Positions 1,764 to 62,499 of a stretch of DNA of 64,000 bases are shown piece after piece (the stretch's first letter is position 1; each line of letters starts with the position of its first letter). The notes below the pieces were generated by a model. The model was given only the letters and a program-made list of their open reading frames with translations, was not told the DNA's origin and did no database searches. The stretch is from an uncultured Acidobacteriota bacterium (GTDB taxonomy: Bacteria; Acidobacteriota; Thermoanaerobaculia; Multivoradales; UBA5704). The DNA is taken from positions 1,728,001 through 1,792,000 of the forward strand of contig CAVYRF010000002.1 of the NCBI GenBank assembly GCA_963770895.1, read 5' to 3'. A program made the position numbers and the translations under genes.

Positions 1764-2336
1764 TCAGCGGCCGACGGGGGCCGCGACCTCGCTCTTGGCG
1801 AAGAGGGCGACCATCTCGCGGTTGAAGGCCGGGATGTCGTCGGGCTTGCGGCTGGTGACCAGGTTGCCGTCGGCCACCACCTCCCTGTCCACCCAGCGGC
1901 CGCCGGCGTTCTTGAGATCGGTCTTGATCGACGGGAACGAGGTGATCTCGCGGCCGCGAACGACGTCGGCTTCGGCCAGCATCCAGGGTCCGTGGCAGAT
2001 CGCCGCGACCGGCTTGCCGGCGTCGAAGAAGCTGCGCACGAAGCGGACCGCCTGCGGCTCCCGGCGCAGGTGATCGGGGTTCATCACTCCGCCAGGCAGC
2101 AGCAGGGCGTCGAATTGGTCGGCCCGCGCTTCGGCGAGCGGCGTGTCGACCTTCACCTCCTTGCCCCAATCGGTCATCTTCCAGCCTTTCACCTTGCCCT
2201 TGGCGGGCGAAACCACCACCGTTTTGGCGCCCGCATCCTCCAGCGCCTGCCGCGGCTCCATCAGCTCCACCTCTTCGAAGCCGTCCGCGACCAGGATCGC
2301 GACCTTCTTGCCTTTGAGATCTTCCTTGCTGGTCAT
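1764..2336 (-). CDS. pfpI: PfpI/DJ-1 family type 1 glutamine amidotransferase-like protein (protease/deglycase)
   Basis: [32 protein letters not shown] nucleophile elbow, [11 protein letters not shown] at 2336 with AAGGAGGT Shine-Dalgarno at 2341-2348. Confidence 0.92.
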
Positions 2337-2476
2337 GCAAACCTCCTTCTGCTGCTGTCCGGCGACGCCCCGTACCCGCTCGTCGAAGCACGATTGCGCA
2401 AGCCCGCGGGCCGGCATCCGTCGCCACCCCCAGCCTGGAGCAACATGGATGCCAGACCGCCTGCAACCCTTTCCCC

Positions 2477-2507: not shown

Positions 2508-2560
2508 GTGCCGCCTTGGCCGCCGCAAGATCAGGCTGAGGACCAAAAAGGAGGTGCACC

Positions 2561-2812
2561 ATGCCAACCAAGGACGGATTCGACGACCTGCCCCGCTTTT
2601 GAACGGAGCAGCAAACGACGTCAGGGCTTCCCCTCCGAAACCCGCGTCAAACGCGGCCCAAGGACGGTCCACGGGGACAAGGAGCTGCTCGAAAAGCTCG
2701 GCCGCAACGACCCATGCCCCTGCGGCTCCGGCCGCCGCTTTCAAAAACTGCTGTCTGCCCGCCGGCCGCTTTTGAAGGGTCGGAGCGCGGCCACTACCTC
2801 CGCCCACCGTAA
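2561..2812 (+). CDS. Small SEC-C (zinc-binding) motif protein, 82 aa, split into four segments by three +1 shifts (programmed frameshift candidate; otherwise a pseudogene)
   Basis: AAGGAGGT SD (2548-2555) then ATG 2561. Segments [13 protein letters not shown] / [47 protein letters not shown] / [10 protein letters not shown] / [12 protein letters not shown]-stop are joined by +1 shifts at CGC-TTT-Y (2594-2600, 2736-2742, 2767-2773). Confidence 0.7.
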
Positions 2813-2822
2813 CCACTGAACC

Positions 2823-2850
2823 CGGGCCGGCCGCCGTACTGGCCGGCCCG
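2823..2850 (+). terminator. GC-rich hairpin downstream of the SEC-C gene
   Basis: CGGGCCGGCC-8 nt-GGCCGGCCCG, a perfect 10-bp stem starting 10 nt after the TAA at 2812. No U-tract. Confidence 0.45.
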
Positions 2851-3004: not shown

Positions 3005-3688
3005 GTGAATACAGGGGTCAGGCAGGATGGGCAGGATCTGCGGGCGACGCCGGCGTATACGGTCGCCGAGGCGGCACGCTACCTTTCCATTCCCTATCCG
3101 ACGCTGCGATCTTGGTTTGCCGGGATTGAAGGGCATTTCAAAGCGGTCGTGCGTTGGGAAGTTGCTGAGGACCACCGCCTCTCGTTCTCGAACCTCGTCG
3201 AGGCGCACGTGCTCCGGGCGCTCAGGACCAAATATGGGATCTCGATGTCCAACGTGCGCACGGCGATCCGCTACGTTGAGCAAAGGGAGAACATCGACCG
3301 CCTGCTCCTGCATCCTGGCCTTCGCGCCGGGCTTGGCCGCCTCTTCCTCAAGAAGTACGCCGAGCTGATCGAGCTTGCCCCAAGCACCCAGCACGTCATC
3401 GAGCGGGCTTTTGAACAATATCTGGAAGCTGTCGTGCAGGATCCCGTCGGTGTGCCGGTCAAGCTGCATCCGTGGATACCGGATCCGCAGGTCGGTCCCA
3501 AGAAGAGTATTGTCATCGATCCAAAAGTCTCGTTCGGCCGGCCGGTAACAACGATTCGCGGTATCACGACGGTCGTGCTGGCCGACCAGTTTGACGCCGG
3601 CGCTTCGATCGAAGCGCTCGCGGAAGACTATGGGCTCTCGCAGGCAGCGATCGAGGACGCCCTTGCCTTCGAACGAGCCGCCGCCTGA
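3005..3688 (+). CDS. DUF433-domain antitoxin (VapB45/Rv2018-like) with N-terminal HTH
   Basis: PAYTVAEAARYLSIPYPTLRSW HTH, LSFSNLVEAHVL, C-terminal IVIDPKVSFGRP..GASIEALAEDYGL (DUF433). Overlaps the downstream PIN gene. Confidence 0.85.
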   Translation: MNTGVRQDGQDLRATPAYTVAEAARYLSIPYPTLRSWFAGIEGHFKAVVRWEVAEDHRLSFSNLVEAHVLRALRTKYGISMSNVRTAIRYVEQRENIDRLLLHPGLRAGLGRLFLKKYAELIELAPSTQHVIERAFEQYLEAVVQDPVGVPVKLHPWIPDPQVGPKKSIVIDPKVSFGRPVTTIRGITTVVLADQFDAGASIEALAEDYGLSQAAIEDALAFERAAA

Positions 3689-4094
3689 CCCTGTCTTCTT
3701 TGTAGATCGGGATCTTGGCCGGCGGTTTCCAGCAATCCTTAAGATAGGCGGTCTCTCGGTAGAGATCCACGACGACCACTACCCGGGTGTCGAGAAGCCA
3801 CCCGATCACGTTTGGCTTCAGATGACAGCGGAACGGGGTTGGGTTGCAGTTTCCCACGACGCCAACATCCGCCATACGTCGCGGTCGCGAGACATCATCG
3901 CTGAAGCCCGCGCGCGGCTGATCGTGGTGAAGGGAAAGGCTCGCACCCAGGACCTGGCCCAGAACTTCCTCCGCACCTACGCCGCGATCTCCCGTTTTAT
4001 CGCGCTTCGCAGGGGTCCAAGGATCGCCAAGCTCTACAGGCATGCGGAGGATGCAGCGCGGCCTGGAAGGATTGAGGGGTGGTGGGAGGGCTGA
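3630..4094 (+). CDS. PIN-like toxin (VapC45/Rv2019-like)
   Basis: FFVDRDLG, D-x-x-W, GWVAVSHDANIR motifs. Start is ATG 3630 or TTG 3663. Confidence 0.8.
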   Translation: MGSRRQRSRTPLPSNEPPPDPVFFVDRDLGRRFPAILKIGGLSVEIHDDHYPGVEKPPDHVWLQMTAERGWVAVSHDANIRHTSRSRDIIAEARARLIVVKGKARTQDLAQNFLRTYAAISRFIALRRGPRIAKLYRHAEDAARPGRIEGWWEG

Positions 4095-29600: not shown

Positions 29601-32600
29601 AGCCGGCCTTGACGGCGGAGCGCTTCCGCCCCGACCCCTTCGCCGCGGCGCGGGGGGAGCGCGGCGCCCGCCTCTACCGCACCGGCGACCTGGCGCGCTT
29701 CCGCCACGACGGCGCGCTCGACTACCTGGGCCGCCGCGACCACCAGGTGAAGGTGCGCGGGTTCCGCATCGAGCTGGGAGAGATCGAGGCGGTGCTGCAG
29801 GCGCATCCGCGCGTGGCGCAGGCGGCGGTCGTGGCCCGCGACGACGGGCGCGGCGACCTGCGGCTGGTGGCGTACGTGGCAGGGGCGGCGGGGGACGACC
29901 TGCGCGACTACCTGCGGCAGCGCCTGCCGGGCTACATGGTGCCGGCGGCGTTCGTCCTCCTGGCGGCCCTGCCGCTGACCGCCAGCGGCAAGGTGGACCG
30001 CGGCGCCCTGCCGGAGCCGACCGGCAGCTGGGGCGAAGTGGACGGCAGGCGCGCGCACGTCCCGCCGCGCACGCCGGTCGAAGAGCTGGTCGCCGGGATC
30101 TGGGCCGACCTGCTGGGCATCGAAGAGATCGGCGCCGCCGACGATTTCTTCGCCCTGGGCGGCCATTCGCTGCTCGCCACCCAGCTGGTGTCGCGTCTGC
30201 GCGCGGCGTTCGCGGTGGAGCTGCCGCTGCGCGCCGTGTTCGCCAACCCGACGCTGGCGGCGCTGGCGGCGGCGGTCGACGCGGCGCGCGCCGCGTCCGC
30301 CGGCGGCGAGGGCGAACCGGGGCAGGCGCAGGCGGCCGGCGCCGGGGTCGTGCCGGTGCCGCGCGACGGCAGGGCGCTGCCGCTGTCCTTTGCGCAAGAA
30401 CGGCTGTGGTTCCTGGACCAGCTGGAGCCGGGCGGCGTCGCCTACTCGCTGCCGGTGGCGGCGTGGCTGGCGGGGCCGCTGCGGGTGCCGGCGCTGGCCG
30501 CGGCCCTGGAGTCGGTGGTCGGCCGCCACGAAGCGTTGCGCACGTACTTGCGAATGGGAGTCGCGGCGCCCGAGCAGGTGATCGTGCCGCCGGCGCCGCT
30601 GGCCCTGCCGGTGGCGAGCGTCGAGGCGCTGCCGGCGGCGGTGCGCCAGGACGCGGCGATGCGTCTGGCGGCGGCAGCGGCGGCGCGGCCTTTCGACCTG
30701 GCGCGCGGGCCGCGAGATCCGGCGAGTGCCGGCGGGCCACCGCGGCCTGCCGGCCTGCTGCGGGTGTTGCTGGTGCGGTTGGACGCGGAGCGGCACCTGC
30801 TGGTGCTCAACCTGCACCACGTGGTGAGCGACGGCTGGTCCATGGGGGTGCTGCTGCGCGAGGTGGCGCAGGGGTACGCGGCGTATGCGTCCGGGCGGCG
30901 GCCGGCGCTGCCCGAGCTGCCGGTCCAGTACGCGGACTACGCGATCTGGCAGCGGCAGCGGCTTGCCGGCCAGGTGCTGGATCGCCAGGTGGCCTGGTGG
31001 CGGCAGCGGCTGGCCGGCGCGCCGGCGACGCTGGACCTGCCGGCGGACCGGCGGCGCGGCCTGCTGCCGGTGGCAATCGCGGCCGCGGCAACGGCGGCCG
31101 CTGCCGGCGAGCCGGGCGGCAGCGTGCCGCTGGCGCTGCCGGTGGCCCTGGAAGCCGCATTGCGCGGCGCCGCGGCGCGCGGCGGCGTGACGGTGTTCAT
31201 GCTGCTGCTGGCGGCGTTCCAGGCGTTGGTGGCGCGGCTCGCGGGCCAGGAGCGGGTGGTCGTGGGGTCGCCGATCGCCAATCGCACCCGCCGCGAGATC
31301 GAAGGGTTGATCGGATTTTTCGTCAACACGCTGCCGCTGCCGGCGGACCTGTCGGGCGGCCCGTCGGTGGTGGACTTCCTGGGTCAGGTGCGCGACACGA
31401 CGCTGGGAGCGTACGCCCACCAGGAGGTGCCGCTCGAAAAGCTGGTGGCCGAGCTGGCGCCGGATCGCAGCCTGGGCCGCAACCCGCTTTTCCAGGTAGT
31501 CCTGGCGCTGCAGAACGCGCCCCTGCCGGCGTTCGACCTGGGCGGCCTGCGCCTGGCGCCGGTCGCGTTGCCCACCACGACGGCCAAGTTCGACCTGACG
31601 CTGGCGCTGGCGCCGGGCGCGAGCGGTCTTGGCGGCGCTGCCGGCATGGCCGGCACGCTCGAATACGCGCGCGCCCTCTTCGATCGCGCCACCGCCGGGC
31701 GGCTGGCGGCCAGCTACCTGACCCTGCTGGCGGCGATGGCGTCTGCCCTGGGCGCCGCGGAGGCGCCGGCCGCGCGCGTTGCGGAGCTGCCGCTGCTGTC
31801 GGCGGCCGAGCTGCAGCAGCTGCGGGAGTGGCGTGGCGAAGCCGAGCTTCCGGTGGCGCCGGAGGCGGGGCGCGAGACGATCGCATCGCTGTTTGCGGCG
31901 CAGGCGGCGCGCACGCCGGACGCGGTGGCGGTGGCTGCGGCCGGCGGGGGCGATGTCAGCGGTGTCGGCGATGTGCGCGATGTCCGCAGCGAGGCGGTGA
32001 CCTACGGCGAGCTGCGCCGGCGGGCGGGGGTCCTGGCGGACCGCTTGCGGGCTGCCGGGGTGGGGCCGGAGGTGCCGGTGGGTCTGCTGGCCGAGCGGTC
32101 GGTGGGGATGGTGGTGGCGACGCTCGCGGTGCTGGAGGCGGGCGGCGCCTACGTGCCGCTCGACCCCGCGGCGCCGCCGGCGCGGCTGGCGCGGCTGCTG
32201 GCCGAAGTGAGCCTGCCGGTGATCGTCGCCCAGCGGCACCTGGCCGCCGGCCTGCCCGCCGCCGCGGGGCTGGCAGGGATGGTGGTGGAGATCGACGGCG
32301 GCGGCATCGCCAGCTCGCCGGCGGCTCCCCCGCGTCCACGTCCCGCCGCGCCGCCGGCTTGGTGCGAGCCGGACGGGCTGGCATACGTGATGTTCACGTC
32401 GGGTTCGACGGGCACGCCCAAGGGCGTGGCGGTGACGCAGCGCGGCGTGGTGCGCCTGGTGCGGCGGACGTCGTACGCGCGGTTCGGTGCGGACCAGGTG
32501 TTTTTGCAGCTGGCGCCGATCGGCTTCGACGCGGCGACGTTCGAGATCTGGGGAGCGCTGCTCAACGGCGGCCGTCTGGTGCTGGCGCCGCCGGGACCGG

Positions 32601-50900: not shown

Positions 50901-52587
50901 TGGCCGTGGACCGCTCGCCGGAGATGGTCGTGGCGATCCTCGCCATCCAGCGCGCCGGCGCGGCGTACGTGCCGCTCGATCCCGACTTCCCGCCGGACCG
51001 CCTGCGCTTCATGCTGGAAGATTCGCGCGCCGCGCTGCTGGTGAGCCAGGAGCGCCACCTGGCCAGCTTCGCAGGGGTGGCGACGCGGGTGCTCTGCCTG
51101 GCCGCCGGCGAGCCCGCCGCCGCGGCGGCCGCGGCGCCGCCGGCACCGCCAGAGGCCTGGCCGTCGCCCGCCGACCTGGCGTACGTGATCTACACCTCGG
51201 GCTCGACGGGACGCCCCAAGGGGGTCATGGTGAGCCACGGCGCGATCGCCAACCGCGTGCTGTGGATGCGGCGGCAGTTCCCCATGGCGGCGGACGACGT
51301 GCTGCTGCAAAAGACTCCCTACGGCTTCGACGCCTCGATCTGGGAGATCTTCCTGCCCCTGATCTGCGGCGCCCGCCTGGCGATCGCCGAGCCCGGCGGC
51401 CACCGTGACGCGGCCTACCTGGCGGCGGCGATCGCCGAGCACGGCGTGACCGTGCTGCAGCTGGTGCCGTCGCAGCTCGCCATGCTGCTGGAGGCGCCGG
51501 ACCTGGGCCGCCACGCCGCCACGCTGCGGCGGCTTTTCTGCGGCGGCGAGGCGCTGCCCGGCGAAGCGGTGCGGCGTTTCCGCGCCGCCGTCGACGCCCC
51601 AGTCTGCAATCTCTACGGCCCCACCGAGACGGCGATCGACGCCACCTTCCACCTCTGCCCGGCGGCGGCGCCGGCCGGTGTGGTGCCGATCGGCCTGCCG
51701 CTCGACAACCTCCAGGTCTACGTGCTCGACCGCGGCATGCAGCCGGTGCCCCCCGGCCTGCCCGGCGAGCTCTACGTCGGCGGCGTCAGCCTGGCGCGCG
51801 GCTACCTGATGCGCCCGCGCTTGACCGCCGAGCGCTTCGTGCCGCACCCCTGGAGCGCCGCGCCGGGGGAGCGCCTGTACCGCACCGGCGACCAGGTGCG
51901 GTGCGCCGCCGGCGGCGTGCTCGAATTCCTCGGCCGCGGCGACGGCCAGGTCAAGGTGCGCGGCGTGCGCATCGAGCTGGGCGAGATCGAGGCGGCGCTC
52001 GCCCGCCATCCGCAGGTTGCCGCGGCGGTGGCGACGGTGCGCGACGACGCCGCCGGGACGGGCGGCGAGCGCCAGCTGGTGGCCTATTTCCAGGCCGGCG
52101 CGGCGGGGTCGCCGGCGCCGCGCGAGCTGCGCGAGCACCTGCTGCGCACGCTGCCCGAGGCGATGGTGCCGGCGGTGTTCGTCGAGTTGCCGGCGCTGCC
52201 GCTCGCGCCCAGCGGCAAGGTCGACCGCCAGGCGCTGCCGCGGCCCGGCCACGGCGCGCCGCGCCAGGCCGAGTACGTGGCGCCGCGCACCGCCGTCGAG
52301 CAGGCGTTGGCGACGATCTGGGAGGGGCTGCTGGGCGTCGGCCAGGTCGGGGCGCACGACAACTTCTTCGACCTGGGCGGCCACTCGCTGCAGGGCATGC
52401 GGCTGGTCTCGCACGTGCGCGACGCGCTGGGCGTCGAGCTGCGCGTGCGCAGCATCTTCGAGAACCCCACCCTGGCCGGCCTGGCCCAGGTGGCGACCGA
52501 CGAAATGGTCGAGCAACTTGGCGAGGAGCTGGTGTCGCAGCTGCTCGCCACGGGCGCCGGCCCCTCCCTGGCAGGCGGAGAGAGCGC

Positions 52588-52591
<4 letters not shown>
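47942..52591 (+). CDS. NRPS 2: C - degenerate C (interface-like) - A(Gln) - T
   Basis: GTGA overlap start. HHIVSDWWS. Second C-like domain has LPALCAD in place of HHxxxDG. Code DAWQFGLIDK. GGHSL. Confidence 0.92.

Positions 52592-62499
<9,908 letters not shown>

Follow-up and report, generated by a model that had tools for sequence, protein, structure and literature searches.

A widespread family of SEC-C knuckle genes with serial TTT-Y sites, probably expressed by programmed +1 ribosomal frameshifting

We found that a small gene within the 64-kb stretch of DNA analysed here (the window) is a live gene and belongs to a widespread, uncharacterised family of proteins of about 80 residues, in which a basic N-terminal half is followed by a SEC-C Cys-x-Cys..Cys-Cys knuckle. 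Full-length SEC-C protein is probably made by programmed +1 ribosomal frameshifting, through slippage of tRNA-Phe in the P site. The original prediction, drawn from the letters of the window, had set out the layout of this gene as a Shine-Dalgarno (SD) element, an ATG at 2561, an opening frame of 13 codons, three +1 shifts, the KNCC that follows the second shift and a closing hairpin, and our analysis confirmed it in every detail (Table 1).

Table 1. Coordinates of the SEC-C gene, its shift sites (S1 to S3) and its divergent neighbour in the window.
Feature	Coordinates	Strand	Remark
DJ-1/PfpI family gene	1764-2417	-	divergent from the SEC-C gene
Shine-Dalgarno AAGGAGGT	2548..2555	+	5 nt upstream of ATG 2561
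Segment 1, codons 1-13	2561..2599	+	ATG to S1 Phe
Shift site S1, TTT_TGA	2597..2602	+	P-site UUU (TTT 2597-2599), 0-frame stop UGA (TGA 2600-2602)
Segment 2, codons 14-60	2601..2741	+	+1 frame; basic region and C-P-C-G-S-G-R-R-F
Shift site S2, TTT_CAA	2739..2744	+	TTT 2739-2741, preceded by CGC; 0-frame CAA is a rare Gln codon
Segment 3, codons 61-70	2743..2772	+	second +1 shift gives K-N-C-C..G-R-F, SEC-C motif complete
Shift site S3, TTT_TGA	2770..2775	+	CGC TTT TGA; TTT 2770-2772, TGA 2773-2775
Segment 4, codons 71-82 (E-G-S-E-R..) and stop	2774..2812	+	third +1 shift, back in the ATG frame; 12 codons, TAA 2810-2812
11-bp G+C-rich hairpin	2823..2850	+	fold, 3' of the stop; no T tail

The frame that opens at the window ATG runs for 13 codons only and closes at CGC TTT TGA. 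At all three sites the P-site tRNA can re-pair in the +1 frame, on UUU_U or UUU_C; the runs themselves are T4, T3 and T4, and the 0-frame codons presented in the A site are UGA, CAA and UGA. CAA is rare in the source genome (3789 vs 41402 for CAG), and CGA is rare as well. The segments that follow S1, S2 and S3 have neither a start codon nor an SD of their own, and the remaining two Phe codons of the gene are TTC, as had been noted. A fourth site of the family, S4, is absent from the window gene, which has CTC in place of the TTT of others. Scans at the window gene found no canonical terminator and no sigma-70-like promoter.

When TTTY was taken as a single four-base step, the window product (P0002) had 82 residues. 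This product matched all 19 positions of the Pfam SEC-C model (PF02810), the Cys-Cys pair included, with 37.7 bits against a cut-off of 20.4; the unshifted window frame matched positions 1-15 only, with 29.3 bits. Both the length and the motif agree with the 82-residue SEC-C protein that had been reconstructed. The knuckle was the sole family signal in the product. Among the NCBIfam models none reached its cut-off, and the sub-threshold matches were to SEC-C tails only; the AF2 model of P0002, built from alignment A1 (pLDDT 59, pTM 0.35), was too poor for a fold search. Our search of a phage collection returned no true family member, the only matches being the YecA-like tails of four E. coli phages. 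A protein atlas queried with P0007 returned SEC-C clusters only, and the two nearest were labelled mostly viral (Uroviricota), which we record as a lead only.

It had also been claimed that the three junctions share CCGCTTTYRAA. We found three copies of this string in the 64-kb window, every one inside the SEC-C gene, and none in 100 shuffles, and the shorter CGCTTTY was not enriched in the window (11 found vs 11.9 expected). The CCGC prefix holds at the window junctions but is local to the source genome, as the codon preceding TTT varies and is TGC, TCC, CGG or TAC in other lineages.

The inspection of the T-runs that had been proposed was carried out on assembled contigs. Logan contigs from 4 runs and 3 studies, one run of which may be the source sample, were gap-free over 2450-2900. 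Contig X1 spans the three sites and shows 0 differences; X2 spans sites 1-2, X6 sites 2-3 and X5 site 1, with no gaps at the sites. Since short-read contigs from other runs show all three T-runs, sequencing error is effectively ruled out. The nearby 21-kb ORF, said to be intact, proved to be so (23567-45079, + strand, 21.5 kb, 7170 codons). Positions 51901-62499 contain another giant ORF, of 3532 codons. ARAGORN called a tRNA-Met(cat) of 70 nt within the 21.5-kb ORF (window about 31167-31236; C2:1759167-1759236), which is probably a false positive, and several over-long tRNA calls and two 'tRNA-???' calls elsewhere in the source genome look dubious.

We scanned the whole genome for +1 frame transitions and recovered prfB as the positive control, at C2:4858615, with its classical cassette GGGGG-TAT-CTT-TGA-C. 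The scan found no further TTT-Y break in long genes; small genes such as the SEC-C gene escape it because 25 codons are required on either side. The sole TTT-Y candidate, at C2:5691796, was rejected as the ordinary gene junction between the end of rpoN and hpf.

Orthologues were present in 15 of the 92 genomes of the window's taxonomic family and in 6 of its 11 genera. Thirteen of them were parsed. Reading from the SD-associated ATG with TTTY taken as four bases, a procedure blind to the protein, gave 81-82 residues for each. The homologous TTT-Y break was found at S1 in all 13 and at S2 in 12, the exception (L010) having an in-frame TTC AAG, and S3 was in frame as TTT GAC in four. Many orthologues carry S4 at the C-terminus, where TAC TTT TAG is followed by R-D/E and a stop; a few have it in frame as TTC AGA GAG. 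L009, L010 and L011 have breaks at matching places written in different letters (TGC TTT C, GGC TTT C and CGG TTT C). The N-terminal pattern D-x-F-x-D-L-P-x-F of segment 1 is shared by the orthologues, the E-G-S-E-R of segment 4 is common to the window, L028, L029 and L031, and GGAGGTG followed by ATG, with spacing equal to that of the window, recurs in the orthologues and in many lineages. In L011 (about 1497), ATA replaces the ATG of the orthologues behind a perfect SD, and an in-frame GTG lies within the SD itself. The gene is sporadic in the phylum-wide sample, being present in 7 of 401 genomes.

Across phyla the family is broad. The protein database held 1557 small relatives at E <= 1e-5, and contigs of one genome per species yielded at least 593 confirmed loci (593 of the 600 pattern matches listed). 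The best 80 of these at least 593 loci include members from Planctomycetota, Verrucomicrobiota, Acidobacteriota, Gemmatimonadota, Chloroflexota, Cyanobacteria, Melainabacteria, Pseudomonadota, Bdellovibrionota, Deinococcota and Actinomycetota, and the 78 distinct loci, from more than 10 phyla, add Desulfobacterota and others. The isolates Massilia pinisoli, Chthoniobacter flavus Ellin428, Stieleria magnilauensis and Acidobacteriaceae KBS 96 all carry the frame-broken gene.

Frameshift-aware alignment of the 78 distinct loci placed 179 four-base steps at TTT-Y and 9 elsewhere, on other codons, and called for zero two-base steps. This alignment was fitted to the protein with TTT-Y steps scored cheap, which biases the placement of steps and not the frames. 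At least one TTT-Y step was required in 77 of the 78 loci, and the steps cluster at four Phe positions that are homologous between loci (S1 to S4). A protein-blind reading anchored at the start codon got to the family C-terminus in 67 of the 78 loci, and the stricter rule TTT-Y-purine again read through 67; the other 11 fail the simple TTT-Y reading rule. The plain ORF from the same start codon is mostly 10-25 codons long. Start-anchored readings that reached a stop took one, two, three or four steps in 5, 14, 36 and 9 loci, respectively. Sites are lost and regained between lineages, two to four per gene being the rule within a range of one to four.

We then compared codon-position entropies in the four frame segments of these loci. 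The values for positions 1, 2 and 3 were 0.95/0.97/1.41 at the N-terminus, 0.47/0.43/1.48 in segment 2, which is the best conserved, 0.83/0.67/1.36 in segment 3 and 0.80/0.64/1.40 in segment 4. The third position has the highest entropy in all four, about twice that of positions 1 and 2, a profile that shows purifying selection in every frame segment as judged from the aligned codons. A step precedes the SKRR block in 61 of the 67 start-anchored readings. In L039, L050 and L092 the site has moved and the N-terminus is unconserved, and a shift is still needed. A step between start and core is thus near-universal, even in loci with an unconserved N-terminus and a displaced site, and this persistence argues for selection of the shift over simple tolerance of it.

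As an independent sample, we examined the 120 best database proteins, 113 of which contain the Cys-Pro-Cys core. Among these 113, 53 end at S3 and 21 at S4, a further 28 continue out of frame past S2, and in none does a single frame read to the Y-F-R-D/E end. Gene finders annotate the middle ORF alone. Two database proteins, P0052 and P0109, read S2 unshifted and then have ..F-D-G-A-x-R.. in the same frame; they seem to have a different net shift at S3, without a net +1.

The 0-frame codon that follows TTT differs between sites and lineages. At S1 it is CGA (25), TGA (5) and CAC or TAC (8), at S2 CAA (26), at S3 TGA (31) or CGA (14), and at S4 TAG (36) or CAG (10). These are mostly stop or rare codons (TGA, TAG, CGA, CAA), with CAC and TAC at S1 and CAG at S4 being common ones. 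S2 is a TTT-Y step in 28 of the 78 loci and in frame in 50, with TTC as the in-frame codon in 41 of those 50. S3 requires a +1 step in 48 loci, at TTT-Y in 43 and in the rest at CTT_TGA, CTT_CGG or CTG_CGA. Across all sites, 179 of the 188 four-base steps in the 78 loci fall at TTT-Y and the others include CTT_T and CTT_C; the nine non-TTT-Y breaks comprise CTT_TGA (3 loci), CTT_CGG (3), CTG_CGA (2) and one unclear case in L010. The three CTT_TGA breaks are of the prfB type and lie at S3, one of them (L073) with GGAGG 4 nt upstream. We found no general 5' SD-like stimulator, as a 4-mer within -16..-3 was present at S1 in 3/51, S2 in 5/28, S3 in 8/48 and S4 in 4/59, and no conserved downstream structure at the TTT-Y sites (window mRNA fold, z = -1.34). 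In 7 loci of the 78, S1 is written T7C (L054, L062, L069, L078, L086, L102 and L114); since the frames on either side differ by +2, these loci need two +1 steps or one -1 step. Phase variation was considered and rejected, given the shortness of the runs and an 'off' register in almost every allele.

TTT-Y is not avoided in the source genome, where we counted 3353 in-frame cases in 2830 long ORFs. Within the family itself, TTT CCN at the G-F-P-S position is decoded as a triplet in 7 loci. Both observations imply that TTT-Y alone is not decoded as four bases. Since TTT-Y is common and unavoided in ordinary genes, it would not account for a high efficiency at the sites of the SEC-C gene, nor would any cis stimulator.

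In the mechanism that we consider probable, peptidyl-tRNA-Phe (anticodon GAA) would sit on UUU in the P site with a slow 0-frame codon in the A site, would re-pair one base downstream onto UUY, and decoding would go on in the +1 frame. The slow codon of the window gene would be UGA at two sites, S1 and S3, and at S2 the rare CAA. Three such shifts would be needed for this gene and one to four for its relatives. Ribosomes that do not shift would release a 13-residue peptide at S1, a product lacking the Cys-Cys pair at S2 and a C-terminally short form at S3, losses that the strong SD would offset. The correction would lie with the ribosome and not in the RNA. We infer that each site works at sub-maximal efficiency; as each would pass only part of the ribosomes, full-length output would be the product of the site efficiencies, and it may rise steeply with any loosening of the P-site tRNA-Phe, for example by loss of the ms2 group on A37. 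The available text of PMC5009743 documents that in bacteria UUU_Ynn is a site especially prone to +1 shifts. The source genome has a single ordinary tRNA-Phe(GAA) with the 7-nt loop CUGAAAA (ARAGORN).

Several other explanations must be weighed against slippage of tRNA-Phe. Decay of the gene, or errors of sequencing or assembly at the T-runs, could be suspected from three frame breaks within 250 nt, and the source genome is a 3-contig assembly scored 95% complete. However, dozens of independent assemblies, isolates among them, show these breaks too, the alignment contains only +1 changes, at four homologous sites, and no -1 steps, the third-position entropy points to selection in all frame segments, and independent contigs match a window in which other long genes are intact. 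It had been set out beforehand that recoding should leave homologues with TTT-Y breaks at the same positions and with all four segments conserved at the protein level; this is what we observed, and it effectively excludes both error and a pseudogene, a reading that we regard as very improbable. An alternative in which the mRNA itself is brought into frame, by slippage of RNA polymerase at the T-runs or by U deletion there, is a little less far-fetched and still improbable. The main sites are all T-runs, including the T7 of seven loci. Productive transcriptional slippage is known at runs of about 7-9 or more, but most sites here are just T3 or T4 (TTTC), and T7 occurs in only those 7 of 78 loci and only at S1. 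CTT_TGA, CTT_CGG and CTG_CGA contain no homopolymer at all, and TTT CCN within the same genes is read in frame. Among public sequencing runs matched to the window locus, none were RNA runs.

Absence of any full-length protein is another reading, in which the gene would give separate products, such as a leader peptide and internally initiated fragments, or in which the middle ORF alone would matter. It agrees with the middle ORF being what gene callers annotate and with the S3-ending form retaining the whole zinc knuckle where S2 is in frame. Yet no start codon and SD of their own follow S1, S2 or S3 in the window, the Cys-Cys pair is lost without the S2 shift, the last segment and its R-D/E tail are conserved in the shifted frame, and the strong SD precedes an ATG that is out of frame; we think this reading unlikely, if somewhat less so than correction of the RNA. 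A dedicated decoder, for instance a tRNA with an 8-nt anticodon loop for UUUY that translates four-base words, would match the success of the four-base rule in reading through most loci, but we give it hardly any credence. ARAGORN, the one program used for this search, found no tRNA with an 8-nt loop or a RAAA anticodon in the whole genome. Moreover, TTT-Y is abundant in normal genes and TTT CCN is read as a triplet within the family, some sites are not TTT, and the family spans many phyla.

Among the cellular genes of bacteria, conserved +1 frameshifting is, to our knowledge, confined essentially to prfB and a small number of isolated cases. As in prfB, the P-site tRNA of the SEC-C genes would slip by +1 beside UGA soon after the start, once a short 0-frame ORF has been read; the arrangement is likewise conserved across phyla, and three family members carry CTT_TGA itself at S3. 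In prfB, autoregulation by RF2 is proven. However, prfB has a single site with an SD-like stimulator, whereas the SEC-C family has one to four sites, mostly UUU_Y, with no general stimulator, and a 0-frame codon that is often a sense codon. The same tetranucleotide as in the SEC-C family is described for the UUU_Y error sites of E. coli, for YopN-TyeA and for a rhizobial ICE activator (+1 at UUU) in the available text of PMC5009743, and presumably the same tRNA-Phe slippage would operate there and in the SEC-C family. As described in that text, those are single sites that yield a minor fusion product or an error, in contrast to several sites within one 250-nt gene, all required for the main product and conserved across phyla. 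In nuclear genes of Euplotes and mitochondrial genes of Perkinsus, as in the SEC-C family, a single gene has several +1 sites that share one codon type, but in the accounts available their frameshifting is a property of decoding in the whole organism or organelle. The shifting of the bacterial SEC-C gene would be gene-specific, since thousands of TTT-Y codons elsewhere are read normally. Lastly, the SecA tail, YecA and YchJ share the Cys-x-Cys-x8-Cys-Cys motif; unlike these domains, the SEC-C family consists of stand-alone proteins of about 80 residues, in which the basic half is distinct and conserved. The metal-binding domain of SecA, as covered in the sources available, binds zinc or iron, SecB and ribosomes. 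In the portions of the literature available (PMC3711429, PMC5009743 and bioRxiv 10.1101/2025.10.02.679949 included), we found no account of a frameshifted SEC-C family and no description of programmed +1 sites placed several in series within one bacterial gene. The class of mechanism is known, and the serial arrangement of sites appears not to be.

Genomic context offered little guidance, as no gene family lay beside the SEC-C gene in more than 5 of the 78 loci. The DJ-1/PfpI gene, which had been named as a stress gene, does lie divergent from the SEC-C gene in the window, but the pairing is not conserved in other loci. Downstream, an overlapping pair on the + strand (3005-3688, HTH/DUF433; 3591-4094, PIN_10) looks like a toxin-antitoxin module.

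What the family does can be approached from its sites. The 0-frame codons across the family are TGA, TAG, CGA, CAA, CAG, CAC or TAC, so RF2 cannot be the common input; the original prediction had counted RF2 activity among the inputs, and gating specific to RF2 was rejected on these grounds. The element common to the sites is tRNA-Phe, which fits the idea of an input from its modification. According to the available parts of PMC5699536, +1 P-site slippage increases 3-9-fold when A37 of tRNA-Phe and tRNA-Tyr lacks ms2, a group that the Fe-S enzyme MiaB supplies to ms2i6A37 in a step impaired by iron restriction. Both miaA and miaB are present in the source genome. With three serial sites, 3-9-fold at each would amount to roughly 30- to 700-fold induction. 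These findings make the translation-fidelity sensor of the original prediction a plausible hypothesis, in the form of a sensor of tRNA-Phe A37 modification and of iron. More tentatively, and at odds that we judge to be against it, the family could be an ultrasensitive gauge of tRNA-Phe frame maintenance, in which two to four serial UUU_Y sites multiply the response and the SEC-C product acts on the ribosome or on metal homeostasis. Passage of ribosomes at each UUU_Y site would then be proportional to P-site slippage, and the basic SEC-C product, whose knuckle belongs to a type that binds ribosomes as well as iron or zinc, would possibly close a feedback loop like that of RF2 on prfB.

For annotation, our results mean that present records of this family are fragments that end at a Phe or continue in the wrong frame. 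If programmed frameshifting is true, a family that spans more than 10 phyla and places two to four +1 sites in series within about 250 nt would be a new arrangement, and it would serve as a natural reporter of frame maintenance, tRNA-Phe modification and 'shifty stop' kinetics. Should the sensor idea also be true, the family would link tRNA modification or iron status to a metal knuckle of the ribosome-binding type.
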